Assembly: GCA_000004985.1 (NCBI GenBank)
Contig: GG738897.1
DNA length: 64,000 nucleotides
Direction: 5' to 3' (one strand)
DNA from: Naegleria gruberi
Lineage: Eukaryota
A program made the translations under genes and the position numbers. The notes beneath the pieces were generated by a model that saw nothing but the letters and a program-made list of their open reading frames with translations, made no database searches and was not told the origin of the DNA. Positions 11,482-64,000 of this stretch are shown in pieces; position 1 is the stretch's first letter; every line of letters starts with the position of its first letter.

Positions 11482-12974
11482 ATGGCCAAAGTGAACATGA
11501 TAGCCTACACCTTGCTGAGGTGGTTCTTTGAGTAGGTTTTTAAAAAAGTGATGAGGATTAATAACTTCTTTTAATATGGTGACTTTAGATTTTGTATTCA
11601 CATGTTCTATGGTAATGTGAGTGCAAGAGGAACAGAAAATATTCCAAAAGATCGTCCTGTCATATTGTAAGTGATCAATCATTTAGAAATGATCAATAAT
11701 GAGGATAAAGTGTTGTCAATCATTATAATGGATTAGTGGATGCATTGTTTCTCTATTCAGAAGTGAGCAATAGACTTATTAGAGGTGTTGCTAAACAAGA
11801 ATTATTTAATTTACCTGTTGTTGGATTCTTTATGAAATTACTCGGAATTATTCCAATCATTAGACCATGTGATGTGAATGGAAAGGATTTGGAAGAACAA
11901 AGAAAATTATCGAATCTAGCTGCTATTAATGCTATGGCCGAAGTGTTGATTGATGGACATTGTATAGTCATATTCCCTGAAGGAACAAGTCACAATAATA
12001 GTGACATTCTAACAATCAAGACAGGTTTTGCCAGAGCAGCTTTTACTTGTTTGGAGAAGTGTGAAAATTTGGATAAGATTTATCTAGTACCAGTTGGATT
12101 AAACTATGATAGTAAGAATGAATTTAGATCAGATGTTTATGTTCAATTTGGAAAGGAAATTCCTATTGATAGAAATGATTTACAAGAATACCAACAAGAT
12201 AGTGGAAAGACTTTGCATAGACTTGCTGATGTTGTAAAGGATGCTTTGAGAAATGTCACAGTTGTTGCCAAGGAACCAGATACAATTTTGGCTGCTCAAG
12301 TCGCTAGATCACTTGTTAGAAATAGATCCTTCCCATTAACTCAAGAAGAATACTTGCTCATTACTCAAAGATTTATTGATTTATTTGAAAATGAGCCAGA
12401 GGCAAAACCTGTTTACGAGACTCTCAAACAATTCAATGCCCATATCAGATTATTGAATATGAAGTATTATGAAATTTCTATGAAATATTCATTTGTCAGA
12501 AAGATTATTACCCTATTGTTCACTTTACCAATTTGTTTACCTGGTTCTTTGTATCATGGTCCTATTGGTCTACTTTGTTCTCATCTTGGAAAAAAGCTTG
12601 CTGCTGGATATAAAGATCAAGAGGCTCACTACAAGCTTATGATTGTTATCAGCTTACTTCCAATTTATTATTTGATAACCATTGGAATATTGACCTATTT
12701 ATTTAGTTTCTACTTTGCCTTGTACTGTGCACTTTTATTGGCAATTTCAGGAATTTTAGCTGTTAGAATTAGACCAGTTGCCGTCTCATTGCAAATTATG
12801 AAATCTCTAGGAAAATTGCTAGTTATTAATAGAGAAGAAATCTTGAAGGTCCAAAGACAAATTAGAAATGATTTGGCACCACTAGTTGGAAAGCACTGTC
12901 AAGATCTTATCAAACTTAATTTATTCGATACTGAAATTGTTGCCAAGAGTGAAAGCTCTATTAAACAAAATTAA
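11482..12974 (+). CDS. Glycerol-3-phosphate / dihydroxyacetone-phosphate acyltransferase (GPAT, Sct1/Gpt2-like), three exons.
   Basis: Exon 1 (~11482-11531) MAKVNMIAYTLLRWFF ends in a GTAGGT donor. Exon 2 (~11589-11666) reads E FCIHMFYGNVSARGTENIPKDRPVI and ends in a GTAAGT donor. Exon 3 (~11711-12974) starts FVVNHYNGLVDALFLYSEV... The joined sequence parallels yeast Sct1/Gpt2 (WIF..F..FFREI..RG..NIP..GPVIFVAAPHANQFVDPVIL). It has motif I N-H-x-N-x-x-V-D and motif III VIFPEGTSHN, followed by C-terminal transmembrane helices. The ORF-track entry (11736..) starts at an internal GTG. Confidence 0.8.
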
Positions 12975-13011: not shown

Positions 13012-15146
13012 TTACAATGATTTTTGCATCTTGTTAAGAGTTTCGTCCAATTTACAAGCAGCAGAAATAAGAGAAATGAAAGTGAACGCTTGTGGGAAAT
13101 TTCCAAGTGCAGAACCATTGAAACTCATTTCCTCCGAGTATAAATTCAAGTGATTTCCATAGGTAATCATTTGTTCAAGCATCATTCTACCTTCCTGAAG
13201 GAGATCCTTCGATTCACCATAACTACATGCTCTAGCAATTGATTCAATCAACCAGAAAGTACACAAATTGAAGGTTCCCTCCTCTCCTCCACTAAACCCA
13301 TCATCAGTTTTTTCAACCAGATATCTGTAGACAAGACTAGAGCTCACTAATCCATTTTCTTCGGGCGGCTTATTGATTGCCTTAATGGTATTGACTACGA
13401 GAGTATCGGATGGACTCAGGAAGGAAACTAATGGAATAATCAAAGTGGAAGCATCAAGTGTATCAGATCCGTAGAAACTTGTGAAGGATTCAAGTTCTCT
13501 ATTGTAACCCTTTTCGATTACTTGTTCGAATATTTGATTTCTGACTTTAATCCATTTGTCAACATCCGCTGGGAAAGATCTGGATTGTGCAATTTTTATA
13601 GCTCTATCCAAACAAACCCATGTCATGATTCTACTGTAAACAAAATGTTGTCTTCCACCTCTAACTTCCCAAACACCCTCTGCCAAATGTCATTTCTATT
13701 GAAATTCACAAAAAACTTACCATCTTTTTCATCCCAATTATTACAAACCCAATTTGTAATAAATCTCAAATGCTTCCAAAAGTCATAAGAAATTGAATTC
13801 CCATACTTGTCATAAATATACATTGAATCCATCAATTCACCATAAATATCCAATTGCAATTGATCATAGGCTCCATTTCCAATTCTAACAGGTTTAGAAT
13901 TCATATAACCAGACAAGTGATCAATAGTTCTCTCAATCAACTCATGTTCTCCATCAATACTGTACATGACCTGAAGTGGGGGTGGAGAACCCTTCTCATC
14001 TGATTGTTTGTACTTTAAATTCATTTCTGATATTCTAGCTTCCAGATATTTCACAAATTTAGTTGCTTCCTCCATGAAACCAATGCTCATGAAACTGTAG
14101 AGTGTGAAGGAGGCATCTCTAATCCAAGTGAATCTGTAATCCCAATTTCTCACCCCACCAATGCCTTCAGGAAGTGATGTGGAGGCAGCTGCTAGAATGG
14201 CACCTGTCTTTTCATAGGTTAAAAGCTTGAGAGCTAGTGCACTTCTTTTCACTTGTTCTCTCCATCTGCCTTTATAGGTACATTTTTGAAGCCAATCATG
14301 CCAATAATCGAGAGTTTCATTGAGCATTTCTTCACCATATTGAGTAATTGTCTTGGAACCAAAGATGGATGATAGTTCTTGCTCTGGACAAGTCAAAGCA
14401 TCGTCGAATGTACCAAATACGAAAGTTACACTTTCATCTTCCTCAATGGTAAATTCGCATTCAACACAATTACCAGTCATTGAATCAACGTATGGATCCA
14501 TCATACACATGGATTGTCTTCTGACAGTTGGGGATAGAGTATTCGATTGAGTATTTACACCATTCACAATTGGAATGATTGGTAAAACTGGAATAATCTT
14601 GAGAATTGGCTTACTACAATACAATGTAGCGTGTTCACAATTGATACTACTCTCTGGAATGTTCAATGGATTCATTGGATTATAAAATGGTTTAAAGAAT
14701 GCTTTTTTACCATGAGCTCCAATTTTACATTCATGCAAATCACTTGCATAATTAAAGGATGGACAGCAACTAACCTTAAATGTCATGGATCCATGGATAC
14801 AGTTAACTTTTCTAATAAGAAAGTTTGTACAAGGCCTCTTTTCAGAAACTGGCATAAAATCAATCAATTCACCAATTCCATGCTTGGACATGAATCTTGT
14901 AATGAGAATATTTGTATCAGGCCAATAATGTTGTTTAGTTTTTGTGTAATTCATAGCACGAATTGAGAAACTTCCACCCTTTCTACAATCGAGAATTCGT
15001 CCAAAAACACTTGAAGAATTGAATTGTGGATAACACATCCAGTCAATTGTGCCTTCGGTTCCAACCAATGCACAAGTTTCCATATTTCCAATCATTCCAT
15101 GAGAATCTATTGGAAGATAATCGATTCGTTGTGCTGGAGAGGACAT
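13012..15146 (-). CDS. Glycoside hydrolase family 15 (bacterial/archaeal-type glucoamylase / trehalase-like), two exons, about 700 aa.
   Basis: N-terminus is MSSPAQRIDYLPIDSHGMIGNMETCALVGTEGTIDWMCYPQFNSSSVF, the conserved start of prokaryote-type GH15 and the PHK alpha/beta glucoamylase-like domain. The catalytic (alpha/alpha)6 region follows: NWDYRFTWIRDASFTLYSFMSIGF, GVWEVRGGRQHFVYSRIMTWVCLDRAI, and LNLYSEEM near the C-terminus. The two listed ORFs (13623..15146 and 13012..13686) are joined by a ~41-nt intron (GTAAGT...CAG) at ~13650-13700. Splicing restores the conserved WE.RG motif. Confidence 0.75.
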
Positions 15147-15396
15147 GTTAGAGAGTTTTTTTTAATGATTGAATAAGTAAGTTGCAAAATTGTACTCCTC
15201 AAGCAATTCTAATAAAAAAATTAATTTGGAAAGTTTCCATATTTATTTTGGATGAATAATGTAATGTTTAGAAACTGTTTCAAATACTAAAGATAATTAC
15301 ATTTCCAATTTCAGGAAAAGGTAACCAGAATGTACTGCTTGCCTTAGAAGAGTATTTGAGATTCTTTTGTTAATATTTAATCTTAAATGCTCAAAT

Positions 15397-16119
15397 TCAA
15401 TCCATGAGTTTATAAACTTCTAAGTCTTCAATAAGGAAACCAATTCTTGGAAAGTACTGATTCTCCAACAATTCACCATATTCATTGACTTGATTACCAC
15501 CCTCTTTCTTTAGTAATTTACACTCTGGAAAAATGTGATCCTCCATTTCATCATGTGATCCAGACGTGGCAGATGTGTTTGCATTGGTACCAATCCAAAA
15601 GCAATATCCAAACGCAAATAAATGAAATGAGCTATATCTATACAATGCATAGATCCTATCTTCAGGTAATAATCTGAAAATACACAATCGATTGTTATCA
15701 AATCGAAACGTAAACATTTCTTCATCCTTGACATACATTCCTCTCTCATCAAGTTTCATACTTTCACTCGTATATCCTCCAAATAAATCTCCACATTTAG
15801 ATTTTAAAATAATTACAATCTTTCCTTGATCATCACAATGTTTATGAAAATCTGAATCTGAAAATCCATCCCTACTCGCTCTGAATATTAATTTTGGAGT
15901 TTGATGAGTTCTCAATTCCTTTCTAAATAATTGATGATATTGAGTAGAGTTAATCAGTGCACGGGAAAGCTTGGCTTCTTTCCGATATAAATGAGTGAGT
16001 GTAGGTGATCCGATGTGTTGATCGAGCTTGATTGTGATACACTCTCCGATTGGTTCTTCAAAGTTTTCCATTTTTTTGTAATTATTTAATAAATACTTAT
16101 TCATCAGAAATATATCCAT
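15397..16119 (-). CDS. TLDc-domain protein.
   Basis: LIFRASRDGFSDSDFHKHCDDQGKIVIILKSKCGDLFGGYTSESM...EEMFTFRF matches the TLDc domain core (L.YRAS.DGF....FH..CD..G.T...I....G..FGGYT). 240 aa. Confidence 0.7.
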   Translation of the reverse strand: MDIFLMNKYLLNNYKKMENFEEPIGECITIKLDQHIGSPTLTHLYRKEAKLSRALINSTQYHQLFRKELRTHQTPKLIFRASRDGFSDSDFHKHCDDQGKIVIILKSKCGDLFGGYTSESMKLDERGMYVKDEEMFTFRFDNNRLCIFRLLPEDRIYALYRYSSFHLFAFGYCFWIGTNANTSATSGSHDEMEDHIFPECKLLKKEGGNQVNEYGELLENQYFPRIGFLIEDLEVYKLMD

Positions 16120-16305
16120 TATTTAAAGGTCAAACGGTGAAATAATAAGGCTGTTATCTAACGAAAACCTGTCGCAATTTAGTAAGCTATGGGTATGTTA
16201 TTAATCAACTCATTTCAATTAATTTTCATCAAACCAAAATTTCAATCACCACTAAAGTCAAATATTTTTTATAAATAAATTTAAAAAAAGTTAGCGCTAA
16301 AAAAA

Positions 16306-18550
16306 ATGAGTGACTCTGAATCAACGGCTTCGTCATCCAATATGATGGTGGATGAACAAACATCATCATCAACACGAAACGGAGATGAACAATCTGATAA
16401 GATGAAAGAGTTGGTCATTAAATATTTACAACAACAAGGATATCACCGATCATTGAAAGCCTTGGAGGAAGAAGCTATTGTCGGATCATCTTCACTGCCA
16501 GAATATGCAGCAGTTTTGGAAAGGGAAAGAATGATACGATCATCAGGTAGGTTTTGTAGTACAATAGTAATATAATGTTGTTATTAGGAGATTCTTTGAA
16601 TAGTTTTCTAAGTGAAGCACCAAGTGGAAAGGGATTTCTTCAAGCCTATCAATCTCTCACAGATTGGGTATTCTCCTCTCTGGAAATCTATAAGGTATGT
16701 GTTGTATTATGGACAGTCAATAATATTGAATATCATAATAATATTAGAATGAATTGATTCAAGTATTGTATCCTGTCTTTGTCCATTGTTATTTGGAATT
16801 AGTAAGCAAAAATCATTCTGAGGAAGCTAGAAAATTCTTGAACAAGTACAAGACACAACATTCACATTTTCACTATGATGACATTTTAACACTTCAAAGT
16901 TTACAAACTCCTGAAATTGTAAATCAAAATGAATTTTCTAAAAGATTATTGTCACACAAATTTATAATCAGATTAAGTGAAGCTAGTTTTCACTTATTAA
17001 TGAAGTTCTTACAAGACTCTAGTGAACTAAGACTTTTATCTATTCTCAATAGATTTGTTAATTTTAAAACATACAAAGGACAACCTAGCTTACAAGCACC
17101 AGCAATGATTGATGGAATTCTTCTAATGGATCATGATATTAAAAGCCAACAACAAAAAAAGAAAAGAAAATCTGAGGATGTGGAAGGATCGGATGATGAT
17201 GACTCTGAGGATGATGACGACGAATTTGAAGCTATTTTCGGAAGAAATAAGAAAATTTCATGGGAAGTTGAAAACAGAGAAAAGGAGGAAGCATTAGCTG
17301 CCACTGCTGTTGTTCAACCTACTGCACCAACAGCACCTCAACCTAGTAGAAGAGGAAGAAAGAAAAAAGGAGCAGCCACAGCTCAACAAGAAATTAAGAA
17401 ATTGATTGATGTTGCTAAGGAACAGGTTCCACCTTGTCCTTCTGCATGTTTCTATACACTTTTCAATTGTAATAATAATTTAAATGCTGTGGAAATCGGA
17501 ACAAACTTTGAACACAAACCATCCAACTATTTTGTTGATGATGGCGATTTTGCTCCTCAATATAACCTAAGAAATGGTCCTGTTATTGCAGCAGGTTTTG
17601 CTGATTCTACTATTAAATGTTGGAATTGGAGAACTCTTAATGGTACCATCCCTAATACTAAATCATATCAGAGAAATTATGAAAGTATTAATCTTGAAGA
17701 TAATGAAAATAGAGAATGTCAATATGATACATTAATTGGTCACTCAGGACCAGTTTACTCCCTATCATTCAATTCTGATCAACAATGGCTTTTATCCTCC
17801 AGTGAAGATTGTACAGTACGTTTGTGGAATGTCAATAATGCAGAATCTGTTGTTGTGTATAAGGGACATCAATATGCTGTTTGGAATGTTAGTTTCAGCC
17901 CAACAGATTACATGTTTGCAACAGCATCACATGATCGTACAGCAAGACTTTGGGTTACTGATAGAGTTACTCCTGTCAGAGTTTTTGCTGGACATTTAGC
18001 TGATGTTGAATGTGTCAAATTCCATCCAAACTGTAATTATGTTGCAACTGGTTCTAGTGATAAGACTGTTCGTTTGTGGGATGTACAAACTGGAGAATGT
18101 ATGAGAATGTTCATAGGTCATCATGGGTCTATTAACACCTTAGCATTTTCACATGATGGTAGATATTGTGCCTCTGCAGGTGATGATGGTCAAGTTCTAG
18201 TTTGGGATATTGGATCTGGAAAGATTGCTTACAAATTTATTGGACATACCAAACCAGTGTGGTCTCTTGACTTTAATAGAAATGACACTTTCCTTGCTTC
18301 AGCTTCATTAGATTCAACTGTTAGAGTTTGGTCAATGTTTGACACTATTGATACAGGTTCTGTTGAGGGAAGTCAATCTGCTGCTCAAATCCTCAAAGAA
18401 AAGAAACTTGAATTGGACAAGCACAAGATTATTTCAAAAGAACCATACAAGACTTACTATTCGAAACAAACACCAGTTTATTCACTCAAGTTCACACAAC
18501 AAGACTTTATGGTGGCAGGTGGTGTTTTCACTCCAAATTTAACTTTGTAA
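16306..18550 (+). CDS. TAF5: TFIID subunit TAF5 (LisH + NTD2 + WD40 propeller), three exons.
   Basis: Exon 1 (~16306-16546) carries the LisH-like LVIKYLQQQGYHRSLKALEEEA and ends in a GTAGGT donor. Exon 2 (~16588-16694) ends in a GTATGT donor. Exon 3 (~16748-18550) begins NELIQVLYPVFVHCYLELV, the TAF5 NTD2 signature. Six or seven WD repeats follow (LIGHSGPVYSLSFNSDQQWLLSSSEDCTVRLWN, YKGHQYAVWNVSFSP..ATASHDRTARLW, FAGHLADVECVKFHPNCNYVATGSSDKTVRLWDV, FIGHHGSINTLAFSHDGRYCASAGDDGQVLVWDI, FIGHTKPVWSLDF..LASASLDSTVRVWS). An acidic/poly-K linker lies between the domains. Confidence 0.85.
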
Positions 18551-18864
18551 AAGCAAAACTATTATAAATTATTATTATTAAATTTAATTTATTTAAAAAG
18601 TGGAATACTGTGAAAAAAGGGAAGGAAATTTGATTTCAAAAAGAAGGAGGGAATATTGTGTGGTAGTCTAATCTCCTATAAATTGTTTGTTGTTGTTATT
18701 ATTACTCTAATAAATAGGAGAGAGAAAATAGTGAAATGAGAAAGAATGGAAGAGAAAGTGTGTGTGGAAAAAGAAAGTGAACAAAGATGAGCACTTCGGG
18801 GAGAGAGAAGGTTATGTAGTGTTGTTGATAGATGGTTTCATATGATTATTGAAGCCATCACAAA

Positions 18865-19260
18865 TTATTGATTCTTACAACCACCAGCATTTGCTTTTCC
18901 TTCTTCCTTTGGTGCTGTCCTAGAGAGTTTCTTTCCTTCAATAACATCCTGAGCAGTACAAACAATTCCATCAAATTGACCAACAGCTACACCATGTCGA
19001 GCCAATTCAATAGCTTTTTCAGCTCCCTTTTCCTTGTTAAATTGTATCACAGCAGAGCTGAAAACGAGGGCATTAGCTTTGATCACATCAATAGAACTAA
19101 TTCCTCCACTAACTTTCTCAAAGAATTCTCGAATTTGTTTTTCTTCAGCAACGAAAGGCAGTTCAAATACTACAATTGTTCGTTTCAAAAGTTTTTCACC
19201 TTCCTTATCGTTGAGCATTTCTTCAAGTTTTTGTTTTATAAGATTTCTTGATGTAGACAT
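18865..19260 (-). CDS. Small RRM-like (ferredoxin-fold) RNA-binding protein of unknown function.
   Basis: 131-aa ORF. RTIVVFELPFVAEEKQIREFFEKVSGGISSIDVI...AVIQFNKEKGAEKAIEL has RNP2/RNP1-like spacing. Family assignment is uncertain. Confidence 0.4.
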   Translation of the reverse strand: MSTSRNLIKQKLEEMLNDKEGEKLLKRTIVVFELPFVAEEKQIREFFEKVSGGISSIDVIKANALVFSSAVIQFNKEKGAEKAIELARHGVAVGQFDGIVCTAQDVIEGKKLSRTAPKEEGKANAGGCKNQ

Positions 19261-20219: not shown

Positions 20220-23066
20220 ATGTTCAGATCATCACCAAGTAGTCCCTCCGAAACTCAAACTCTTGTCGCTTGTTCTTCTCCTCTCTCATTGATGGGCTTT
20301 TCTGATGATGAAGAGGATGAACAGCCAAAACATGAACTTAACATCCACACACCAATTACACCTCAAATTAAAAACATTCCTTCTCATAATAATTTAATGA
20401 ATTCTCCACTAAAGTCTCCTCCGAATACTAATACATCAAATGGTAAATTATTACTCAATCTTCAACAAGGTAGTACTTCCATCACTAATAAGAATCCATT
20501 CAATATGAGCAATACAATGGATAGTAGTGATGATGATTTATTGGTTGATATTGATTCTCCACTATTAGAATTTGGACAAGACAATGTATTTAATAACAAC
20601 ACCACCACCTCTACAGCAATTAATAGAAACAACAATTCAGGAAAGTCTTCAAGTGATTCATCATCTTCGGAGAAGACTTCCCAAGGAGGCTCCTCTGATA
20701 CATCATCAAGTTCTTCAAGTAGTAGTAAGAAATCTTCATCACTTAAAGGCAGCAATAGCAGTAATAGTATTGCAAGTACGAGTAATACTAATAATAATGG
20801 AGGATCAACTCTTACTATTAAGCCAAAGGCTAAATCCACAAAAGAAAAGAAAGAAAAGAAAGAAAAGAAAGAAACTAAATCTCCAAAGAAAAAGAAGGAA
20901 ACTCCAAAAAAGAAAGTCGAATTCAAGAAGGTGGAAAGTAGTTTCAGTGACAGTAGTCCATCACCCCAAAGAGAATCAGAAAGTTCTAAGAAGAGAAAGA
21001 AATCCACTCCTGAAGAGGTTCCTAAAAAGTGGAAAAAGAAGAAAGTGGAAGAAGTTCCTCCTCTAGCTCAACCACCTCCATCAGTTGGAGGAAAGAAAAG
21101 TCTCTGTCGACAATTTACTGACATGATTACAGAAATTAAAAAGACAGCAAAGAAAAAGAAGTATCATGATGATTTGGATGTGAGTGAGGATGATTCAGAT
21201 GATTTGATGGATATTTCATCAAGTGAGGAGTTGCTATCTTCTGATTCAGAGGATGAAGTGGTTGTGAGAAAGAGAAAGAAATTAACTCCAAAGAAAAAGA
21301 AGCTCTTTGCAAATATGCGTTTTGTAATTTCAAATTCTCTTATTGAAAGTGATAAAGAAAAACTGGAAAAGAAAATTAAGGAAGAAAATGGAACAATTAT
21401 AAGACAATTATCATCTAGTAATTTGGATAGTTGTGAAATTGGTAAAACTGTACTCATTTCAGAAAAGACATCAACAAAACCAACCTATTTAATTGCACTA
21501 TTACTCGATATTCCAATACTGAAGAAGGATTGGATATTCGATTCAATTACCGAGAAGAAACTCATAACAGATGAGAAGACTATACAGAAGTATCTATTAG
21601 ATAGAGGTACAACTAGTTCTAGATTGGATCCATCTACTCTTCATGTTGAAAAACAAACATTCAATTCATCAATGATGTGCTGTAAAAAGGAAAATAGAAT
21701 TTTCTATGGTTGTCGAGTGAAGATTTTGGGAAATGAAAAAGAATTGTCCAGTTGGATCAGTATATTGGTTGCTGGTGGAGCCATCATAGATAATGAATTG
21801 ACTACACAAACAAGTGAAGGATCGAATTTCATTTTTGTAAAAGATTCGAATAAGCTTACTGAAGAAGATGTGGAGAAGGCAACATCTATGAAGCTTCCAA
21901 TACTTGATGGAGAAAGTTTGCTTCAAATTGTAATTACACTAGAAAGAAAATTCTCAGAAGAGCAAGTTTTAAACTATGCAGAGCTTTCGCAGATAACTAG
22001 AAAGATGCAACCACTTCCTTCGATCAATCTATTGGAAATGTCAATGCCACTAATTGAATTGCCAGATGAAACTGATGTTATCAACAATATGGATCTCATA
22101 GATAAGATTGAGTTTGGTAACTTTTTTAATATTAATGAGAAAGATTCCATTCAAAAAACCTCATTCACAAGAGTTACAACTTGTAGTGGTGATACTATAT
22201 GTGAAAAGTATTACATTCATGATATGGTTGTTTTGGATTATTTGAATGAGGAGTTAATTTGTAGAATAGATAGTTTATACTATTGTGGAAATATTCCAAC
22301 ACTAAGGGCTACCCAATATTATTCGAATCCAAAACGAAAGCTTCAAAAAACTGAAAGAGTAGTCAATTGTTCCGTAGAGCATATCAAGTACAAGCTTAAT
22401 ATTTGTGGACCTACCCGTCACAAATCCCAACACTTTTATTCGAATCAACGTTTCAACACCAAGACACAGGTCATTTCTGATATTTTGGAAGATATCAAAA
22501 CAGTTGGAGAAACTTGTCTTGGCTTGGAACAATGTAAAGAGCACAAATTCAAATGGCTACCACCTTTCAAAACCAATATTTTCAATGACCACATTATGGT
22601 TAGCACACTCAAATGGAGGAAGCAATTATTCCAACAGGGAGACTTTGTTCTCATCAAACAAAAACAATCTGATTTACAAATTGTTGGATGCATAACAGAG
22701 ATGAGGGAGAATGATACCAATATTTTCGCCATTCCATCTTCCAGAAAGTTTCCAATTTCACAGGGATCACTCTTTGTGGAAATATTCGAAAAGCTCGACC
22801 AAGATTTTTGTGTACTCTCCAAAAACTCCAACGTGATAACAACAACAACTGATAACCACCAACAAGGAAACACTGTTGTCAGTCAATTGTGTGTGAATAA
22901 CAGTAATAATCAACAGTACAAGACAACTCACCAAGTTTCAAGATTGGATGTTGAATCTATTCAGCACATCCAATCATTTGTAGCCATTAATGGTCAATTA
23001 ATTGGAGACAATTCAATTAACACGCTAGTCCAACAATACTCTAACAATCTGATCATCATCCACTAG
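20220..23066 (+). CDS. Large nuclear-type protein with tandem BRCT-like domains and long Ser/Lys/Glu low-complexity regions.
   Basis: 948-aa ORF. After a long S/K/E-rich region there are two segments with BRCT-like spacing (FANMRFVISNSLIESDKEKLEKKIKEENGTII...TYLIALL and IFYGCRVKILGNEKELSSWISILVAGGAII). The protein contains a (GAAAGA)n-encoded KEKKEKKEKKE repeat. Function not assigned. Confidence 0.5.
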   Translation: MFRSSPSSPSETQTLVACSSPLSLMGFSDDEEDEQPKHELNIHTPITPQIKNIPSHNNLMNSPLKSPPNTNTSNGKLLLNLQQGSTSITNKNPFNMSNTMDSSDDDLLVDIDSPLLEFGQDNVFNNNTTTSTAINRNNNSGKSSSDSSSSEKTSQGGSSDTSSSSSSSSKKSSSLKGSNSSNSIASTSNTNNNGGSTLTIKPKAKSTKEKKEKKEKKETKSPKKKKETPKKKVEFKKVESSFSDSSPSPQRESESSKKRKKSTPEEVPKKWKKKKVEEVPPLAQPPPSVGGKKSLCRQFTDMITEIKKTAKKKKYHDDLDVSEDDSDDLMDISSSEELLSSDSEDEVVVRKRKKLTPKKKKLFANMRFVISNSLIESDKEKLEKKIKEENGTIIRQLSSSNLDSCEIGKTVLISEKTSTKPTYLIALLLDIPILKKDWIFDSITEKKLITDEKTIQKYLLDRGTTSSRLDPSTLHVEKQTFNSSMMCCKKENRIFYGCRVKILGNEKELSSWISILVAGGAIIDNELTTQTSEGSNFIFVKDSNKLTEEDVEKATSMKLPILDGESLLQIVITLERKFSEEQVLNYAELSQITRKMQPLPSINLLEMSMPLIELPDETDVINNMDLIDKIEFGNFFNINEKDSIQKTSFTRVTTCSGDTICEKYYIHDMVVLDYLNEELICRIDSLYYCGNIPTLRATQYYSNPKRKLQKTERVVNCSVEHIKYKLNICGPTRHKSQHFYSNQRFNTKTQVISDILEDIKTVGETCLGLEQCKEHKFKWLPPFKTNIFNDHIMVSTLKWRKQLFQQGDFVLIKQKQSDLQIVGCITEMRENDTNIFAIPSSRKFPISQGSLFVEIFEKLDQDFCVLSKNSNVITTTTDNHQQGNTVVSQLCVNNSNNQQYKTTHQVSRLDVESIQHIQSFVAINGQLIGDNSINTLVQQYSNNLIIIH

Positions 23067-54331: not shown

Positions 54332-55239
54332 TTAAAATACACCAGAGTAATATTCTTCATAGGCTTGCATAATTTCCTCTCTCGTATTCATAACAAATGG
54401 TCCTTGTCTTGCAACTGGTTCCTTAATAGGTTGACCTGATAAAATTAAGAATTGAACTTGATCAGATGTACTTTCAAATTCAAATTGAGTATTTTCAATT
54501 GTTTCATCGAATAAAACTGCAGATTTTTCAACAACTTGTTGATTTTCAAATATTCCATTTCCTTCAAATAAATAAATTAAACCTTGAAATCCTTTTGGAA
54601 TTGTTTCTATGAATTTTTCATTCTTCTTATTGATTTTAACATGACCTACTAATACAGGAGTTTTTAAAAGCACTGGACTATTTAAATCATGTGAAATACT
54701 TTTACCTGCCAGAACAGAATAAAGTACATTTTCCGTAATTTGCTTTTTTGGAATTTCACTTGCTCTTAAATCTTGATAATATGGATCAATTAATTTATCT
54801 TGAGATTTTAAATTAATCCAAATTTGAAACCCATGCATAGGTCCATCTCCAATTGGTGTTTCTTCATGTCTAATTCCTCTACCAGCTATTGTAATTATAT
54901 TATTGTAAATAATTGTAAAGTATTAACAAGTATTAACATACCAGTCATCCATTGAGCATCACCAGAAGATAAATAACCACTTCTTCCCAAACTATCTCTA
55001 TGCCTAGTTTGACCAGTTAATATATAAGAAAGTGTTTCAAATCCCTTATGAGGATGTTCTGGAAATCCATTTTTAGCATTTGGTATTTTAGCTTCATCCA
55101 ATAATAAGAATGGATCATGAACTGAAACTGTTGGTCCACCAATGGTTCTACACACTTTAACACCTGCACCTTCATTCACTTCCTTTCCGAGAATTGTTTT
55201 AAGAATTTTTAATTTCATAGCGTGTTGTTGTAGACTCAT
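54332..55239 (-). CDS. Pirin (bicupin) family protein, two exons.
   Basis: Exon 1 (ORF 54895..55239): ...[73 protein letters not shown] ends at a GTATGT donor. A ~49-nt intron follows (~54899-54947). Exon 2 is RGIRHEETPIGDGPMHGFQIWINLKSQDKLIDPYYQDL... (ORF 54332..54838). HPH.G.E...Y.L.G...H.D..G......GD.QWMTAG.GI.H.E and Q.W.NLP are pirin signatures. Confidence 0.8.
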
Positions 55240-55512: not shown

Positions 55513-56532
55513 ATGTTTAAACTTGCATTTCCAATACGAGTTACCAAATTATACATGGTGATGATGATCATCATTTCCATCTCTATATTATTCATCATTA
55601 TATTTACACTTTACAATAAAAACATACAGAATAATCATGGAAAATCTACACAAGTAGAACATATATTACATGAATCATTATATCATCGGAATGATGGATT
55701 TCCATATATTCCTTATCAGATGGGAAATAATCAACTCATTCCACGAATAATTCATCAAACATTTAAAAGTCAAACTAGAAATGAAATGACAAGTGGCATG
55801 CAAAATGCAAGTAAAAGTTATGAATCCAATTCAAAATTTAAATATATTTATTATAATGATGATGCAGTTTTACAATTTTTAATTGATAATTATGGAGAAA
55901 ATTCTGATGAATTTCATGCATTTAATAATTTAATTCCATTTGCATATAAAATTGATTTTTGGAGATTGGCAGTTTTATATAAAATTGGAGGTTATTATTC
56001 AGATATTGATTCAATTTTATTAAAAGATTTAGATAAGTGGATTGAAAATAATGCAACAATGGTATTACCTGTTGGATATGCTTCATTTGCTTGGTTTGGA
56101 TTTGAATTTGCATTCATTGGAAGTATTCCTCATCATCCATTATTGAGAATTGCTATGGATATGATTATTTATAATGTGAAAAATAAGTATATTCCAGAAG
56201 TTCCTAGAAAATTACATGAACTTGATTTATTTCTTAAATTTGTTACAATTTCAGGACCTGTTCTTATGGGAAAAGCTTTTAATAGATATATGAATGAACC
56301 TGATGAAGCTCCTCATAATATTGTAAAGGGAAGAAGAGAAGGTTTTCAATTTCTTGGATTTTGTGATAATGGTATAAAATATTTTACAACAATTCCACAT
56401 CAGAGAGATTATAGAGAATGTAGAGGTGAAATTGTCATACAATTCAGATATGAGGAATATCGTCAAGAGAGGAGGAAATCTTATAAACCATATTGGGCAA
56501 GTTTTAAGGAAGGTAACATTTTTAAAACTTAG
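55513..56532 (+). CDS. GT32-family glycosyltransferase (Och1 / alpha-1,6-mannosyltransferase-like, DXD motif), type II membrane topology.
   Basis: N-terminal signal anchor (VMMIIISISILFIIIFTLY) then IPRIIHQTFKSQ...DDAVLQFL...FNNLIPFAYKIDFWRLAVLYKIGGYYSDIDSILLKDL. This is the GT32 sugar-binding region (IP..IHQ.W......D........D..RY..LY.YGG.Y.D.D). 339 aa. Confidence 0.7.
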   Translation: MFKLAFPIRVTKLYMVMMIIISISILFIIIFTLYNKNIQNNHGKSTQVEHILHESLYHRNDGFPYIPYQMGNNQLIPRIIHQTFKSQTRNEMTSGMQNASKSYESNSKFKYIYYNDDAVLQFLIDNYGENSDEFHAFNNLIPFAYKIDFWRLAVLYKIGGYYSDIDSILLKDLDKWIENNATMVLPVGYASFAWFGFEFAFIGSIPHHPLLRIAMDMIIYNVKNKYIPEVPRKLHELDLFLKFVTISGPVLMGKAFNRYMNEPDEAPHNIVKGRREGFQFLGFCDNGIKYFTTIPHQRDYRECRGEIVIQFRYEEYRQERRKSYKPYWASFKEGNIFKT

Positions 56533-56834: not shown

Positions 56835-59800
56835 TCAAATAAAACTTTGATTTGATTTTGTTGGAGATGAAGAAGGTGAAGAATTAGTTGATAATTGTTT
56901 TAAATTTTTCAATCTTGGACTATTTGGACTTGAATTTCCATTTAAATTATTATTGGTAAAAGGTGATTCTAATGAAATATTTCCATTTATAGTATTATTA
57001 TTAACAATTGAACAAATATTTGGAATTGGTAAATTAATATTTCCACTATTTAATTTAATTAAAGAATATTGTTGTAATTTTTTAATAATATTTACATAAG
57101 AATTATTTAAATCACCATTTAAAAGTAATAAAATAATAAAAAATAAATCATCTGAATATTGAATTAAAGGTTTTTTAAATTTAAATGTTAAAAATGTTTT
57201 TAATTGATTAACATCAATATTTGTATTAATTAAATCCTTATTTGGATTAATTTCCAAAATTAGAAGTTGTAATAAAATAAATCCAATACATTTTATATCT
57301 TTTTTAAAATAATCATTTTGATTTTGATTTAAAAGTTCATTCATATTTTCATATTGAATTTGTTCAAATACTAAATTTGTATCGTGATGTTTTTTTAACA
57401 TTGAATTAATTCTTTGTTTTAAAATTCTATTTTGGTTTTGAATTTCTAAATTTGTAAAATCTTGTAAATATTCAATTCCACTTAAAATTATTTCAAAATC
57501 TTTTTCATTAAAAAGTAAAGTTTCTAAATTTAAATGATTATGTACTTGTTGCCTTTTATGGAGATATTGAATAACTTCAATTAATTGTTTTCCTATTTTG
57601 TAAATTTCAATTTCTTCAAATAATATTGTTTGATTTTGTAAAAATTGTTGAAATGTTGGATAATAGTTTGTAACATAATAATAATTATCATTAAAATAAA
57701 ATTCTTCTATTTTTGATTGTAAATATTTATGTTTAAATATATTATATTTAGAAATCTAATTAAATTAAATATAAAAATATAAAATAAATATTAAATTAAA
57801 TATTAAATTAAATTAAAATATATTATAAACATACCATATTTGTAAATTCTGATAAAGTATTAAATTTACTAATAAATGAAATTTCTAATTTTTGTAAATC
57901 ATTTACTTTATAAATAGTATATTGATTTAAATGTTTAATATTTTCAATAATTTTAAATCTTCCATTATAAATAAATTGATCATTAAATTTCTTTAAAAAA
58001 TTAAAAATTGCCTTTTTCTTTTTTCTTGAACTTTTTAATTCTGGTAATTTTAATAAAACTTTATCAAATCTATTTAAACATTCCTTTCTAGCATTACTAT
58101 CATCTAAATGATTTACAAAAACATTTAAAATATCAACAATTGTATCAATAGTTGGTCTTGTTAATGGATGTAATTGTAACATTGATATTACTAATCGAAT
58201 TATTAATTCTGGTATTCCATTATTTTTTAACTTGTTACAAATAATTGAATGAGTTTCATTTTCATCGGTTTTTATAGCTTCATGCATTAAAAATTTAGTT
58301 TCTTGATTTTTTACATTTCTAATAATTTGAATTTCCAATGTTAATAATTCATAAAATACACATCCCAATGAAAATATATCTATTATTATTATTATTATTA
58401 TTATTATTGGTATGAATTAGTATGAATTAGTATCATGATGATGATGATGATATTAAGGTGATGATAAATCCAATTAAATGTTATTAAAATATTAAATATA
58501 TTAAAATATTAAACATACCACTATTTTTATCAATTTTAAAATTACCAGTTGAACATTCAGGTGATAAAGTAATTGGTGTTCCTCTAAAACTAATTGTATT
58601 TAAATCATTTGTTGAAGTTAATAAACCAAAATCACCAATTGCAACTTCTTCCATATTTAGAGTTGAAGAATAATTAATTAAAATATTTTCATTTTTTAAA
58701 TCTCTATAAATTAAATTATTAAAATGAATTTGTTGTAAACCTAAACAAATTTGTAATAAAATATTTAACCAATTTGGAACTGTTTTTAAATTTCTTAATT
58801 TTGAATTTGTAATTAATTGTTGTAATGAAGATTTATAAAAAGGCATAACAAGACAACATGAATATTCATCATTTTTCTTTTCAATTGAATAATCTAAATA
58901 TGGTATTAGATTTGGATGTTTTAAATTTGAAACTTGTTCAATATTCCATTGTAATTCTTTTAATTTAATTGAATCTAAATTTTGTATTAATTTTTTAATA
59001 GCAACATCTCCAAATTGAATTGATTTACAATGAAATACAGTTCCTTCTCCTCCACTTGCTATTTTTTTTAAAACAACATATTTACCATTACATAATGTAT
59101 GTACTGTTATGGATTTTAACCAAATTGGTTCAATTTGAATTAAATTTAAAATTAAATATTTTAATAACATTGAAATATGATTTCCTTTAGAAAATTCAGG
59201 TAATTTACCAATTATTTGTTTACCAAATATCCACATATGTTTTAATGTATAACTAACTAATTGTATATTAAATATTTCCTTCTTTTTCTTTTTTTGATTA
59301 TTCAATTTTTTTAAATCTTGTTCAATAAAACTTTTTATAGCTTCCATACTTGTTTGAAAGGCAATTTGTTCATCTTTAGATATTTTAGAATCGGGAAATT
59401 TAACCCTATCAGATTTTACAAGTAATTTTATAGCTGCCAATATTGAACATGTTAAAATAAAGATTAAATGTGAACATGATTTTTGTGATAATAATGTATA
59501 ATATCTATTCAATTCTATATCTATATTATTACTAGTAGTAGTTGTATTATTTGTATTATTTGTATTATTTGTATTATTTGTATGAGTATTATTAGAATTA
59601 TTAGAATTATTAGATGATGAATTACCCTGATCAATAGTTGCTCTAAATGAAGTTGTAGGTAAATGTAAATTAATTTCCTCAGTGAGTGGATTATGATCAT
59701 TGGAATTGAAAAAATTATTCATACTACTTCTATTTTGATTATTTTGATTATTATTATTGAATGATTTTAAAACTCTACCAAATGTTGCAGGTGTTGGTAA

Positions 59801-62279
59801 TTGTTTTCTATCAACAAAACCAAAAGCATCAATAACTAATTTTTGTAAATCATCAAAATTATTTGGTATTTGAGTAAAGAATGGTTCATTAGAATCTTCA
59901 TCAATTGAACTTAAAATTGTATCTTCTAAATATTGAATAAAAGTTTCAATTATAATTGTAATATTTTGTTCAAATGCAATCATTAGAGTATAAATTAATT
60001 CATTCAATCTTGTTGAATTTTGAAAGAAATTTGTTATATTAATATAAACAAACATGAAATCCTTATTTGATTTTAAATTTAAATGATGATTTTGTATAAA
60101 ATCTTTCATTCTCTTTTTAATTAAAAATAAATAATCAAAATTTTGACCAAATTTATCAATTTGTAATTTTTGAAATTCAATTTGATTTTGTAAATAAGCA
60201 TCAGAAGAAGCTTTAAAATAAAATTCAAAATATTTTAAATCATATTCACCTTGTATCATATCATATAATGAAAGTGATTGAAAATAATCTAATAATTTTT
60301 TATAATTAATTGATTTTTCTGTAATTGAATGTAATGTAAAATAATTATCTAATAATTGAATTTTACTAAATTTATCCATTGGATATATTGCTGATTTTAA
60401 TACTGTTATTACTTTACCATCACATAAAAAATCAAAATGATCAATTTTATAATAATATTGATTAAAATATTTTGTAAAAAATCTACTTTTAATATTTCCA
60501 TTTATAGTAATTATTTTACCTCTATCTGCTATAAATAAATCATTTTCTAATAATTCTGTTACATAATGTGTTAATAATATTTTAATTGGTTTATAATTTG
60601 TATATTCTCCACTACAATATACACTTCCTGAATTACTTAAAAAGTAACAATTATTTTTAGAACATTCAATATCTATAATTGGTATATCTTGTTCTATAAA
60701 ATATGTTAATTTTTCAAATTCTCCATATATATCATTAGTATGATTTAATCCAAATTTACCAAATTGATTTTCACCATATACATATATATTAAATGTTGAT
60801 GTTAAAATTAAAATACTTTTATCATGACATGAAATTTTTTTAATAAAATCTTTTTGAATATTTCTATTATTATTTAAATTATTTATATTATTTAAATTAT
60901 TATTTAAATTTATATTATTTATATTATTATTTAAATTATTTATATTATTTAAATTAGAATTATTTAAATTAGAATTATTTAAAATTAATTGATTATTAAA
61001 ATTTGGAAATGGAATTGGTTTTGTACAAAAATTTTTAACATCTTTACATTTAATTCCAATTTCATCATCATTACAAATTCCACAAATAAATAAATCAAAA
61101 TCTTTTGTAATCATTAAAACATAATATTTTGTTAATGATGAAATTGAATGAATATTTGATGTAATAAGTGTTGGTGTTTTAATTACTTTTAATCTATTAT
61201 CTGTATTACTTGTTATATCTGAATAATAATTAATTCCACATCCATATAAATTACCACTTTCTATATTATTTTAAATATTATTTATTTAATAAATATATTT
61301 AATATTATATTTAGTTCTATATTATTTTAAATATATTGTAAACATACCAGTTAAAAATAAAGTACTTTCATATAAAGTTGTAATTTTCTTAATTTTTTCA
61401 CCTTTAAAATTATTAAATTGTAATCTAGTTGGTATTTGAGTGAGAGGTTTATTATGTCCTAATCCTAATTGATAATTATTATTATTACCTGCTACCCAAA
61501 TACTTTCATCCTCTTTTATTAAATATTAAATATTAAATATGATAAATATTTAAAAACATACCCATTACTATAAAAGTACAATAATTTTCAGTATAAATAT
61601 TTCTAATTCTAGAAACATCAATTGAATCTCTATATTCATTCTTTACACCTAACATTATTAAATGATTTTCATACACTTCAGAGTCTTGTTGATCATCAAA
61701 TTGTTGTTGATCATCATCACCATATAATATATAATCATCATCATCAATGGCTACTAAATATTGTCCATAATTAGTATTCTCTTTAATAATACCACTATTT
61801 AATATTAATGTACTTGATCCACTCAATTTATTTAAGTGATTAATTTTATAAAACAAATATTCTACATTAATAGTATTCTTATTGATCATATATTTACTTA
61901 GTGATGATAATGCTGATGCTGATGCTTTTATATTTTGATTAGATGATGATCCTACTCCTACTATAATATTACTACCACTATTACTACCAGGTGATGATAC
62001 AGGTGAATCTATTGGTGTAGCAATTGATGATCTAAAGCCTAGTGCATTGTTATAATTACCTGAAAGGCTTGTTGATGATGATGATGGTGATATTGAAGTA
62101 TCATTTTTATGAATACTAAAATATTCTTGATCCGAAGTAAATAATTTTAATAAATTCTGAGAACTTGTAGTACTGCCACTAGATGTTGACAGTCTATTAT
62201 TATTGTTATTGGTGAGAATGGATGGTGAAGAATTGGAGGGTGATAGAGAAGGTGAATTTAATGAATGTCTTGAAGACAT
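56835..62279 (-). CDS. Large multi-exon gene encoding an RCC1-repeat + Ser/Thr protein kinase with long Asn/Ser/Thr low-complexity inserts. At least 5-6 exons with very AT-rich introns.
   Basis: Exon ORFs on the minus strand: 61533..62279 (MSSRHSLNSPSLSP...; Ser-rich N-terminus), ~61350-61530 and 58484..61114. The last contains RCC1-like repeats (LYGCGINYY..., YVYGENQFGKFGL, SGSVYCSGEYTNY), then kinase subdomain I-VII (IASGGEGTVFHCKSIQFGDVAIKKL, HPNLIPYLDYS, IYRDLKNENILI, IGDFGLLTS). A ~115-nt intron contains (ATT)8. Then 57823..58368 (kinase subdomains IX-XI: MGCVFYELLTLE..., LHPLTRPT), and then 56835..57401 plus probably the 57402-57720 segment (Asn-rich C-terminal tail). Exact exon ends were not resolved. 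Confidence 0.55.
58381..58404. repeat. (ATT)8 microsatellite. A directly duplicated GTATGAATTA 10-mer lies immediately downstream. Both are inside an intron of the kinase gene.
   Basis: tattattattattattattattatt followed by ggtatgaattagtatgaattagtatc. This is an intronic simple-sequence repeat. Confidence 0.8.
59521..59600. repeat. Coding tandem repeat: ~5 copies of the 10-mer GTATTATTTG (imperfect). It encodes a Thr/Asn-rich (NTNNTNNT...) insert in the kinase gene (minus strand).
   Basis: gtattatttgtattatttgtattatttgtattatttgtatgagtattattagaattattagaattatt is visible directly. It is in frame within ORF 58484..61114. Confidence 0.75.
60841..61000. repeat. Imperfect 12-15-bp AT tandem repeats (aaattatttatatt / atttaaatta variants). 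They encode the poly-Asn/Leu/Ile tract NNSNLNNSNLNNINNLNNNINNINLNNNLNNINNLNNN of the kinase gene.
   Basis: Direct inspection. Repeat units vary by 1-3 nt. The region is in frame on the minus strand. Confidence 0.7.
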
Positions 62280-62468
62280 TTTTTATACTGTCTGACACTT
62301 GGCGTTTGATTGATCAACATTGTGGATAATTGATGGATAAAAACTCTTGAGCAGCAAAGAAAGAGCGGGAAGGTAGTTAACTTCCTTTTTTGAGTGTTAG
62401 CCACAATATTATGAATCAAATTTTGACAACAAAACAATTTAGTGTTGATTATAAATTTAAATGAATCA

Positions 62469-64000
62469 ATGAGTGAATCAGAATCATCACAAGAACAAGT
62501 TGAAATTCTAGATGATTTATCATATATACATAATTATAAAGATGATATATTATTATTAGATGAATTTTATTTATTAAATGATGAAAATGTTTACATTTCA
62601 TTAACTGATAATAATAATAAACAATCTATTTCTATATATGGAATATTATATAATAGTAATAAAATACCAAATAATTTAATTATAGATATGAATAATTTAA
62701 TTCATGAAGATTTAAATATAATAATTTCAAAATTAAAATTAGAATCAAAATTTATTGGAAAATTAATTAATTTTAATATTGAATATGATAAATGTAAAAA
62801 ACCAATAATTTTATTTACTATAAATAGAAATGATAAAATATTTGAATGTGAATGTCTAAGATGTGATTCAGATTATTTTAAAATTTTTAAAAAAATTTAT
62901 AATTTATCTTCAATTACATTTTGTTTAATTTTATCTATTTTTAAATTTCCTAAACATGGAATTAATAAAATTATAAATGAATCAAATTCAATTTCAAAAG
63001 AATTTAAATTAAATATAAATATAAATTTAGAAATAATTAAAAATAATTATAATTTTATTATTGATGAAATTCATAAATTAAATAATGAAAAAATATTTAA
63101 AAGTAAATTTATTAATGAAATTTCAAATATTTTATTTAATAATTCTGAAATGGAAGAATATTCATCAGATTCTTCAGATTCATCTGATTATGATTATAAA
63201 TTAACACCTAAAAAGGAAAGAAAACAATTAAAAAGAAAAAATGAAAATTTAAATTCTAAAAAAAGAAAAAAATTTAAAGAATTTAAAAATGAATTTGAAA
63301 TTGAATTTTTAAAAGATGAAAATTCTATTAAAATTAATAATGAAATTATTCAAGATGGAGAAGCAATATATTTATTTCCATATTTAGAATTATTTCCAGA
63401 TTTTTTAAAAAGTAAAATTGATATAAATTATTATCCTTATTTTATTTTTCAAATTAAATTTAAAAATAATGAAATTTATGGTAAAAGATTATTTAGACAT
63501 TATGATTTAGCCTTTTTAAGTTTAAAAAATAATTTAAATATTTTAACTAGAGATGTAAATGAATTATTTTTAGATGAAAATGAAATTTTAATTCCAATAC
63601 AAAAATACTATATAAGGAAATGTTATGTTTTTTATTTAATTGAAACAAATGAATTTGAATCAATTTCTAAAGATATAAGAGAACGAAGAGATATTTTTTA
63701 TTGTAAACATTTAATTAATATTAAAAATAATTTTCAAAATTTTGAATTACTAAATATAGAAAAATTATATTGTAAAAATATGTTTAATTTAATTGATAAT
63801 TATTCTAAATTTATTTTAAATAATTTAATTATTGAAAATGAAAATACAAGAAATTTATTAATTGGATTGGATTTATTTGGTGGATGTGGAGGTTTATCTT
63901 TTGGTTTATCTAAATCTGGAATTAATATGAAATATGCAATTGATAATAATATTGATGCTATAAATAATTTTCAATTAAATTTTAAAAATTCAAATACTTT
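62469..64000 (+). CDS. 5' part of a large DNA (cytosine-5)-methyltransferase gene. A ~480-aa N-terminal region is followed by C5-MTase motif I. The ORF is open at the window edge.
   Basis: Reading from ATG 62469 I get 510 sense codons with no stop through position 64000, in DNA that is ~85% AT (where random frames hit a stop every ~15 codons). The last 45 residues read LLIGLDLFGGCGGLSFGLSKSGINMKYAIDNNIDAINNFQLNF. This matches C5-MTase motif I and its following helix (L.LFSG.GG...G...AG......A.E.d..A..t...N). It is not in the ORF track because there is no in-window stop. It is preceded by a tiny uORF (ATGAATCAATGA at 62461). Confidence 0.7.
   Translation, partial: MSESESSQEQVEILDDLSYIHNYKDDILLLDEFYLLNDENVYISLTDNNNKQSISIYGILYNSNKIPNNLIIDMNNLIHEDLNIIISKLKLESKFIGKLINFNIEYDKCKKPIILFTINRNDKIFECECLRCDSDYFKIFKKIYNLSSITFCLILSIFKFPKHGINKIINESNSISKEFKLNININLEIIKNNYNFIIDEIHKLNNEKIFKSKFINEISNILFNNSEMEEYSSDSSDSSDYDYKLTPKKERKQLKRKNENLNSKKRKKFKEFKNEFEIEFLKDENSIKINNEIIQDGEAIYLFPYLELFPDFLKSKIDINYYPYFIFQIKFKNNEIYGKRLFRHYDLAFLSLKNNLNILTRDVNELFLDENEILIPIQKYYIRKCYVFYLIETNEFESISKDIRERRDIFYCKHLINIKNNFQNFELLNIEKLYCKNMFNLIDNYSKFILNNLIIENENTRNLLIGLDLFGGCGGLSFGLSKSGINMKYAIDNNIDAINNFQLNFKNSNT

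Follow-up and report, generated by a model that had tools for sequence, protein, structure and literature searches.

What gene runs off the 3' end of the 64,000 nucleotide stretch of Naegleria gruberi contig GG738897.1 (assembly GCA_000004985.1) analysed here, hereafter the window, and what part might it play in the DNA methylation of this organism? The window closes with a long open reading frame (ORF) on the plus strand, which an earlier note, made from the sequence alone, had taken for the beginning of a large cytosine-5 DNA methyltransferase. We conclude, with a probability of roughly 0.88, that this ORF is the 5' half of an N. gruberi NEG-M nuclear gene for a second, divergent paralog of the DNMT1 family, belonging to the paralog group that we call group B. 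The gene adds a new member, so far unannotated, to a known family; 5-methylcytosine (5mC), TET, UHRF1 and a DNMT1 have already been published for N. gruberi. Since Naegleria was already known to methylate its DNA, such a gene was mostly to be expected.

The open reading frame and its orthologs

The frame begins with an ATG, stays open for 510 codons and is cut by the end of the window (62469-64000, Table 1), its translation ending in LIGLDLFGGCGGLSFGLSKSGINMKYAIDNNIDAINNFQLNFKNSNT. Translation thus confirms the open frame from which the earlier note started. The closest in-frame stop on the 5' side is a TGA at 62424-62426, and the ATG at 62469 is the first after it. The GC content of the ORF is 14.6% (GC1 23.5%, GC2 18.0% and GC3 2.2% at the first, second and third codon positions), and F, Y, M, I, N and K make up 53% of its residues. 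At this composition a stop is expected every ~8.6 codons, and the probability of 510 open codons is ~1e-27 (log10 ~ -27). In 500 base shuffles of the ORF the longest open stretch had a mean of 58 codons and a maximum of 131. The frame had also been called the longest stop-free stretch in the AT-rich part of the window, which is not the case: the minus-strand ORF of an RCC1-kinase gene at 58484-61114 has 928 codons, and the methyltransferase frame comes second at 524.

The last 60 residues of the ORF match the DNA_methylase family (PF00145) at profile positions 4-45 (E=7e-6, 26.1 bits, cut-off 22), which bears out the proposal that the final residues are motif I of the C5-cytosine methyltransferases. 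The S-adenosylmethionine (AdoMet)-binding FxGxG loop of this motif, DLFGGCGGLSFGL, occupies residues 468-480 (63870-63908), and the strand that follows ends in the acidic residue of YAID (63933-63944). In the alignment the motif I and acidic-residue columns are invariant across relatives. A phmmer search of the PDB sequences with the ORF found a bacterial C5-methyltransferase (3g7u, E=0.002) and MET1, both at motif I only, as expected for a query of such skewed residue composition. The window ends 17 residues past motif I.

Relatives of the ORF are difficult to find. A word-indexed protein search with the ORF found none, and such searches with the ORF, a 3-sequence profile and a masked chimera of 3051 residues returned only a chytrid DNMT1 and one fragment. 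When 1.84 billion representatives were scanned exhaustively with phmmer, 18 matches emerged, none of them outside heterolobosean-like sequences. N. lovaniensis XP_044544034.1 (728 aa) ranks first, with E=6e-99 and 41% identity over residues 5-510. Three fragments (P0006, P0002 and P0004), all from one metagenomic contig of 7.2 kb, jointly tile the ORF, and remoter matches include Willaertia magna KAL9657727.1 (1188 aa) and N. lovaniensis XP_044555355.1 (1230 aa). The other long ORFs of the window encode typical eukaryotic proteins (TAF5-like with TFIID-NTD2 and WD40, PRP3, RhoGEF, RUN, BRCT and LRR), and two of them are identical to the N. gruberi NEG-M proteins XP_002672558.1 and XP_002672497.1. 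These identities rule out a dictyostelid or giant-virus origin, which poly-Asn runs and the AT-richness had suggested. No match of ~100% identity to the methyltransferase ORF was found in the protein collection, which includes the N. gruberi proteome; this ORF is therefore without a public protein model.

The relatives split into two heterolobosean paralog groups. Group A comprises W. magna KAL9657727.1, N. lovaniensis XP_044555355.1 and, from the literature, N. gruberi XP_002682263. Group B comprises the window ORF, N. lovaniensis XP_044544034 and the metagenomic contig. The two groups have their lineage and overall architecture in common: in group A the Pfam families RFD, BAH and DNA_methylase are all significant, and an insert is found at the equivalent place. 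The identity between group A and the window ORF is ~28% only, and group A lies at a separate locus. The group A proteins are annotated and have been cited in publications, whereas the group B gene of the window has no protein record.

The orthologous locus of N. lovaniensis (PYSW02000041.1) is syntenic with the end of the window. Minus-strand kinase and RCC1 models lie head-to-head with the methyltransferase gene, and they match the window ORFs at 57823-62279. Identity is 33-56% for the methyltransferase gene against 47-72% for the neighbouring kinase gene, and the segment from the BAH domain to motif I is the most conserved part of the former. Taken together, the improbability of the open frame, the ortholog match and the head-to-head neighbour kept in N. 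lovaniensis show that the ORF is real.

The catalytic half can be followed in the orthologs. In N. lovaniensis a second model of 435 aa, 3' of the 728-aa model, has a strong PF00145 match, and the exons encode GGPPCQGFS, MENVTG, PQSRSRLF, RECARIQGFPD and QIGNAVPV, as read from the DNA. The Naegleria-like metagenomic contig (ENA ERZ27315067 k141_819941, 7252 bp, here L002), rebuilt over four GT-AG introns (five exons), encodes an intact protein of 1097 aa with all motifs (PF00145, E=3e-51). The PCQ, ENV, QxRxR and GNAVP motifs and motif IX are present in both, and L002 is the best available full-length reference for group B. In these two orthologs the outcome is thus contrary to the refuting condition of the earlier note, a lack of PCQ/ENV motifs downstream. 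Judged from the orthologs, ~550-600 further codons of the N. gruberi gene should follow past the window. N. lovaniensis and L002 share short GT-AG introns at residues ~170 and ~375, where the N. gruberi ORF reads through without interruption, and this implies two intron losses in the N. gruberi gene.

Domain architecture

The ORF was modelled with AlphaFold2, giving a mean predicted local distance difference test (pLDDT) score of 64, and the model was searched against the PDB with Foldseek. The top matches are mouse DNMT1 (3av5, E=4.7e-10), Arabidopsis MET1 and human DNMT1, aligned over ~500 columns, with E-values of 5e-10 to 5e-8 for the full-length DNMT1/MET1 proteins. They are followed by ZMET2, the isolated DNMT1 RFTS domain 6pzv and isolated BAH domains, and apo-DIM2 (9bap) matches with E=2.4e-5. 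A 10-sequence profile headed by the window ORF matches the DNMT1 chains in the PDB with E=1.8e-29, in alignments that cover RFTS, BAH and motif I. Pfam gave no match at E<=1 on the whole 510-residue ORF; sub-segments searched alone gave DNA_methylase and a weak BAH match. The layout is an RFTS-like domain (residues ~93-223), a linker (224-275), a BAH domain (~276-445), a helix and motif I. It weighs against our conclusion that the window sequence, searched by itself, matches Pfam and PDB sequences at motif I only, and that the RFTS and BAH assignments depend on the 10-sequence profile and the AlphaFold2 model.

The RFTS-like region is modelled with pLDDT values of 67-93, and low-confidence strands from residue 27 (62547) may also be part of it. 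Against the isolated bovine DNMT1 RFTS domain (6pzv) the template modelling (TM) score to the target is 0.57-0.60 (E 8e-6 to 3e-5), and the ORF profile aligns to the RFTS domain of mouse DNMT1. The Pfam family DNMT1-RFD is significant in the paralogs P0005 and P0023, weak in the group B orthologs P0006 and P0001 (E=1e-3 to 3e-2) and has no match in the window ORF by itself. By fold and by profile, an RFTS-like domain is present N-terminal to the BAH domain. The linker that follows contains an acidic run, SSDSSDSSDYDY, at residues 232-243 and then a basic stretch, KKERK...KKRKK, at residues 248-273. Judged from its composition only, the basic stretch is a possible nuclear localisation signal.

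The BAH region is modelled more confidently, with pLDDT values of 80-91, and matches the BAH domains of Orc1, Sir3, polybromo, ASH1L and TNRC18 (TM to target 0.35-0.55, Foldseek). The ORF profile matches polybromo BAH at E 4e-12 to 1e-9, as well as the DNMT1 BAH. Pfam BAH matches residues ~337-423 of the ORF below its cut-off (E=3.5e-4, 20.9 bits, cut-off 30.8) and is significant in the paralogs P0023, P0005 and P0007. The segment NNEIYGKRLFRHYDLAFL (residues 333-350), in which a BAH core had been suspected, lies inside the BAH fold of the model and overlaps the Pfam match. There is no second BAH domain, since the model and alignments leave no space for one between linker and motif I. No CXXC zinc finger was matched by Pfam, and none of the 9 cysteines in the 510 residues is in a CXXC cluster. 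Of the domains for which the earlier note proposed to search the N-terminal region with profiles, BAH is therefore found by profile and below threshold by Pfam, RFTS by profile and fold and not by Pfam, and CXXC is not found. The architecture of the Dnmt1/DIM-2/chromomethylase type, which the note had derived from the length of the N-terminal region, holds up against the DNMT1 profile match and the DNMT1/MET1, RFTS and BAH matches of the model. It is supported that the N-terminal region is the regulatory module of an enzyme of this class.

The domain order RFTS, BAH, methyltransferase is common to the window gene and DNMT1/MET1, which are its top structural and top profile matches. DNMT1 and MET1 have two tandem BAH domains against one in the window protein, whose N-terminal half is much shorter. 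Animal DNMT1 contains a CXXC zinc finger, whereas the window protein has none. To our knowledge plant MET1 and fungal DNMT1 also lack CXXC, so that its lack does not exclude the wider DNMT1 family. The chromo-like insert of the orthologs, described below, is not found in DNMT1.

Fungal DIM-2 belongs to the DNMT1 superfamily and has a BAH-containing N-terminus. It is recruited through HP1 and carries out heterochromatin-directed methylation in all contexts. It is a much weaker sequence match, in the catalytic half, and has no embedded chromo-like insert. Dnmt2 (TRDMT1) has the C5-methyltransferase motif I in common with the window protein and starts directly there, as the earlier note had pointed out, whereas 467 residues precede motif I in the window ORF. 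A separate Dnmt2, XP_002681354, is present in N. gruberi (eLife 2023).

The plant chromomethylases (CMTs; maize ZMET2 and Arabidopsis CMT3/CMT2) have an N-terminal BAH domain followed by the C5-methyltransferase domain, as in the window gene. Apart from CMT-like forms in haptophytes, their descriptions come from the green lineage. We know of no CMT with an RFTS domain, whereas an RFTS-like domain is present in the window protein. The biology of the CMTs is resembled by the published non-CG methylation at H3K9me3 regions of N. gruberi.

Paralog groups A and B both have an insert of ~50-65 residues that separates motif I from motif IV. When this insert and motif IV are combined in a profile, maize ZMET2 scores 46 bits and DNMT1/MET1 33-37 bits, and the alignment with ZMET2 begins inside its chromodomain. 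Among solved proteins, the catalytic half of L002 scores 163 bits on ZMET2 (E=1e-46), 126 on MET1, ~120 on mammalian DNMT1 and 57 on DIM-2. The alignment of L002 with ZMET2 is unbroken through the ZMET2 chromodomain (nelrVEKikkIrfGsgD...lKivW...qW.kIkNL against DEFVVEKLVGICYGGSD...FKVQW...TWEPIDNL), which aligns residue-for-residue with the insert at VEK, FKVQW/LKIVW, TW/QW and NL. The insert of the N. gruberi gene would sit beyond the window, so the likeness to CMTs is known from the orthologs and not from the N. gruberi copy.

Other results weigh against calling the insert a chromodomain. Pfam Chromo has no match on the ortholog insert. An hhalign comparison with seven canonical chromodomains gave the expected register and was not significant (E=0.41). 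The model of the insert (P0004, residues 1-186) has a pLDDT of 55 and no significant Foldseek match; at this low confidence it folds as beta-beta-beta-alpha, its top match is ZMET2 (E=0.016, not significant), and ~15 chromodomains are in the top 50, none of them significant. The aromatic cage of the ZMET2 chromodomain is formed by F441, W466 and Y469; as read from the alignment, only one of the three is kept in L002 (Trp), and Leu and Asn stand at the others. We regard the ortholog insert as probably chromodomain-like and placed as in CMTs, and do not file the protein as a CMT.

A further step is to see in heterolobosean group B, and probably in group A too, an RFTS-bearing chromomethylase, in which a CMT-type chromodomain insertion is combined with a DNMT1-type RFTS domain. 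This is a tentative proposal and we consider the odds to be against it. If it were true, the chromodomain insertion, thought to be specific to the green lineage, would either predate the split between excavates and diaphoretickes or have arisen twice at one site. Such an enzyme would also be a concrete candidate to account for the all-context ("CX") methylation, so far unexplained, that Naegleria has at H3K9me3 heterochromatin.

Mode of action and alternative explanations

Published methylomes of N. gruberi, obtained by enzymatic methyl sequencing (EM-seq) and whole-genome bisulfite sequencing (WGBS), contain 0.28% 5mC in all dinucleotide contexts, without preference for CpG and with strand symmetry that is weak (r=0.25) (PMC12344493, MBE 2025). 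This 5mC is sparse and is reported at repeats and at H3K9me3/H3K27me3 regions, and 447 hypermethylated regions overlap H3K9me3 and H3K27me3 (PMC12344493). The genomic 5mC that the earlier note had predicted agrees with these data. Partners of the kind it had suggested looking for are also published for N. gruberi, namely TET-like enzymes (cited in PMC12344493) and UHRF1 (XP_002680882, eLife 2023).

From the orthologs, the part of the N. gruberi protein beyond the window is expected to consist of ~550-600 residues, with a chromo-like insert between motifs I and IV. It would then contain motif IV (GGPPCQG, with the catalytic Cys), VI (ENV), VIII (QSRSR), IX (RE..R.QGFPD) and X (GNAVP). The catalytic half would flip the target cytosine out and methylate it through a covalent bond to the PCQ cysteine, while motif I would hold AdoMet. 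The N-terminal half would target and probably gate the enzyme. As in DNMT1, the RFTS domain may bind H3 ubiquitinated by a UHRF1-type ligase and take part in auto-inhibition, and the BAH domain, possibly with the chromo-like insert, may bind heterochromatic nucleosomes. The window enzyme and its paralog XP_002682263 are most likely among the enzymes that lay the sparse, all-context 5mC at repeats and H3K9me3/H3K27me3 regions.

The same protein could instead be a classical DNMT1 for replication-coupled CpG maintenance, recruited through RFTS, UHRF1 and ubiquitinated H3, as opposed to an enzyme of relaxed context that is directed to heterochromatin. The RFTS-like domain and the UHRF1 homolog of N. 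gruberi are consistent with this, as is the depletion of CpG, whose observed/expected ratio (O/E) is 0.38 over the bulk of the window and falls to 0.13 within its AT-rich block. The lack of CpG preference and the weak strand symmetry in the published methylomes (PMC12344493) argue against it, and so do the lack of CXXC, the single BAH domain and an ortholog catalytic half and insert that are closer to ZMET2 than to DNMT1 or MET1. We consider strict CpG maintenance doubtful; all-context, weakly symmetric 5mC fits a mode like that of CMT or DIM-2 better, though our preference for the latter is only moderate.

A second alternative is that the ORF belongs to a decaying or catalytically dead copy, truncated downstream and without methylation activity, perhaps only a chromatin-binding RFTS-BAH protein. 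The window ends before the catalytic half, so that the catalytic half of the N. gruberi copy, past position 64000, is not seen. In N. lovaniensis there is an in-frame TAG at 12347-12349 of the locus (near position 45,322 of PYSW02000041.1), two codons 5' of a conserved intron donor (GTATAG), which splits the ortholog into two annotated genes, XP_044544034.1 and the 435-aa model. Given this TAG, group B may be dispensable or decaying in some lineages. The gene also evolves fast, with lower identity to N. lovaniensis than the neighbouring kinase gene, and lies within a block of extreme AT drift.

Against decay, an unconstrained frame at the composition of the ORF closes within tens of codons, and 510 are open here. 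Conservation peaks in the BAH-to-motif-I segment, and both motif I and the acidic residue that follows the second strand are intact. At the site of the N. lovaniensis TAG, L002 has TTG (Leu), with the intron at the identical position; the TAG must therefore come from a sequencing error or from a nonsense mutation of recent date. Two further contigs, which carry the relative P0003, stop short of this junction. The related species represented by L002 keeps an intact gene, and the neighbour gene in the AT-rich block also keeps its ORFs. We consider a dead copy improbable and retain the reading of the ORF as the 5' half of a group B methyltransferase gene.

Retrotransposon-captured DNMTs occur in other protists; even so, it is very improbable that a transposon, giant-virus fragment or assembly chimera, marked by the sharp fall from 32% to 18% GC near 56.8-57.0 kb and suggested also by a Phage_integrase-domain gene ~7 kb downstream of the N. 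lovaniensis ortholog, brought in its own methyltransferase, because N. lovaniensis has the same head-to-head order of kinase/RCC1 and DNMT genes at 30-36% GC and, as in N. gruberi, a SHIPPO-repeat gene beyond the kinase gene, the RFTS-BAH-methyltransferase architecture is eukaryotic, and the large phmmer scan found relatives in heterolobosean-like sequences only; repeats and terminal structures were not looked for, nor did the data call for any.

The published enzyme sets of N. gruberi disagree. A survey (eLife 2023) lists no DNMT1 and one "other DNA methylase", XP_002682263 of group A, besides the DNMT2 and UHRF1 named above, a CDCA7-like protein and HELLS. The preprint of the MBE 2025 paper (bioRxiv 2025) reports "a single DNMT1". 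The text of the journal version has "only two DNMT1 enzymes", and its supplementary table one DNMT1 and one DNMT2 (PMC12344493). The group A protein XP_002682263 is presumably the DNMT1 of that paper, and the window gene most likely accounts for the second enzyme of the journal version; we found no published description of the window gene.

With the locus identified, including its RFTS-BAH front half, its intact orthologs and the likely insert of chromomethylase type, it is settled which genes an explanation of the odd all-context methylation has to include. Few lineages on the excavate side keep 5mC; Naegleria does, and is therefore used to infer the role of DNA methylation in the last eukaryotic common ancestor. 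A gene with a GC3 of 2% in a genome of 33% GC can escape gene prediction, and repertoire tables based on proteomes can therefore under-count DNMTs. The significance of the locus would grow if the architecture of RFTS plus embedded chromodomain, and the AT-rich block, prove meaningful.

The AT-rich block and neighbouring genes

The features of the methyltransferase gene and its neighbourhood are collected in Table 1.

Table 1. Positions in the window of the methyltransferase gene, its domains and the neighbouring genes.
Feature	Position	Strand	Basis
Partial coding sequence, first 510 codons of a DNMT1/CMT-family cytosine-5 DNA methyltransferase	62469..64000	+	open frame, N. lovaniensis relative, synteny
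RFTS-like domain, confident core at residues 93-223, beta barrel then helical bundle (predicted)	62745..63137	+	model, Foldseek, profile
Disordered linker, residues 224-275, acidic Ser/Asp run then basic stretch	63138..63293	+	pLDDT 25-32
Single BAH domain, residues ~276-445, holding NNEIYGKRLFRHYDLAFL at 63465-63518	63294..63803	+	Pfam, profile, model
Methyltransferase domain start	63858..63983	+	Pfam PF00145, phmmer, conservation across relatives
Divergent intergenic region between RCC1-kinase gene (start codon 62279, minus strand) and methyltransferase ORF	62280..62468	.	31% GC, N. lovaniensis synteny
RCC1-like repeats and protein kinase, multi-exon gene	61533-62279, 58484-61114, 57823-58368, perhaps 56835-57401	-	ORFs
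Two-exon pirin-like gene (Pirin_C domain)	54332-55239	-	just before GC boundary
DXD-motif glycosyltransferase with N-terminal membrane anchor	55513-56532	+	just before GC boundary

The block from ~56.8 kb to the end of the window has 18.6% GC, whereas the first 50 kb have 32.3%. The GC3 of coding sequences is 2-7% in the block and 17-26% elsewhere in the window, the latter from five ORFs located before 45 kb. Intergenic GC in the block amounts to 14-18%, and the CpG O/E given above is lower in the block than in the bulk of the window. The divergent region of 189 bp between the RCC1-kinase and methyltransferase genes is an exception within the block in its GC content. It is presumed to be a shared promoter.

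The orthologous region of N. lovaniensis has normal GC content with synteny, and in both species the SHIPPO-repeat gene is found on the far side of the kinase gene as seen from the DNMT gene. The AT-rich block is therefore a product of drift in place, specific to N. gruberi, and is neither foreign nor chimeric DNA. The same synteny argues against a chimeric assembly joined at the GC boundary, which was considered separately. Both genes of the block keep long open frames and so are still under selection; inactivation of the kind caused by repeat-induced point mutation (RIP) was rejected since the ORFs stay open. Candidate causes of the drift are chronic methylation with deamination, or loss of GC-biased conversion. 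Speculatively, in the methyltransferase gene and its neighbour (GC3 2-5%) the drift could be a trace left by mutation if the enzyme's own locus were chronically methylated. Positions 1-50000 of the window are also depleted in CpG (O/E 0.38, with TpG/CpA at 1.27), which is of note given the low level of 5mC and its lack of CpG preference.

None of ten simple ORF translations between 45 and 61 kb is in the public protein collection, and the annotated models there presumably differ or are missing. In the RCC1-kinase gene the kinase domain breaks off at the end of an ORF of 876 aa. This gene, which is head-to-head with the methyltransferase gene, is annotated as two genes in N. lovaniensis.

The 3' neighbours of the methyltransferase gene are seen in the orthologous loci. 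In N. lovaniensis it is followed directly, tail-to-tail, by a gene for a SNF2-family ATPase of 1710 aa with SNF2-rel_dom and Helicase_C domains (14041-19173 of the locus), and the Phage_integrase-domain gene (20819-22349) comes after it. On L002 a dynamin-family gene lies 3' of the methyltransferase gene.

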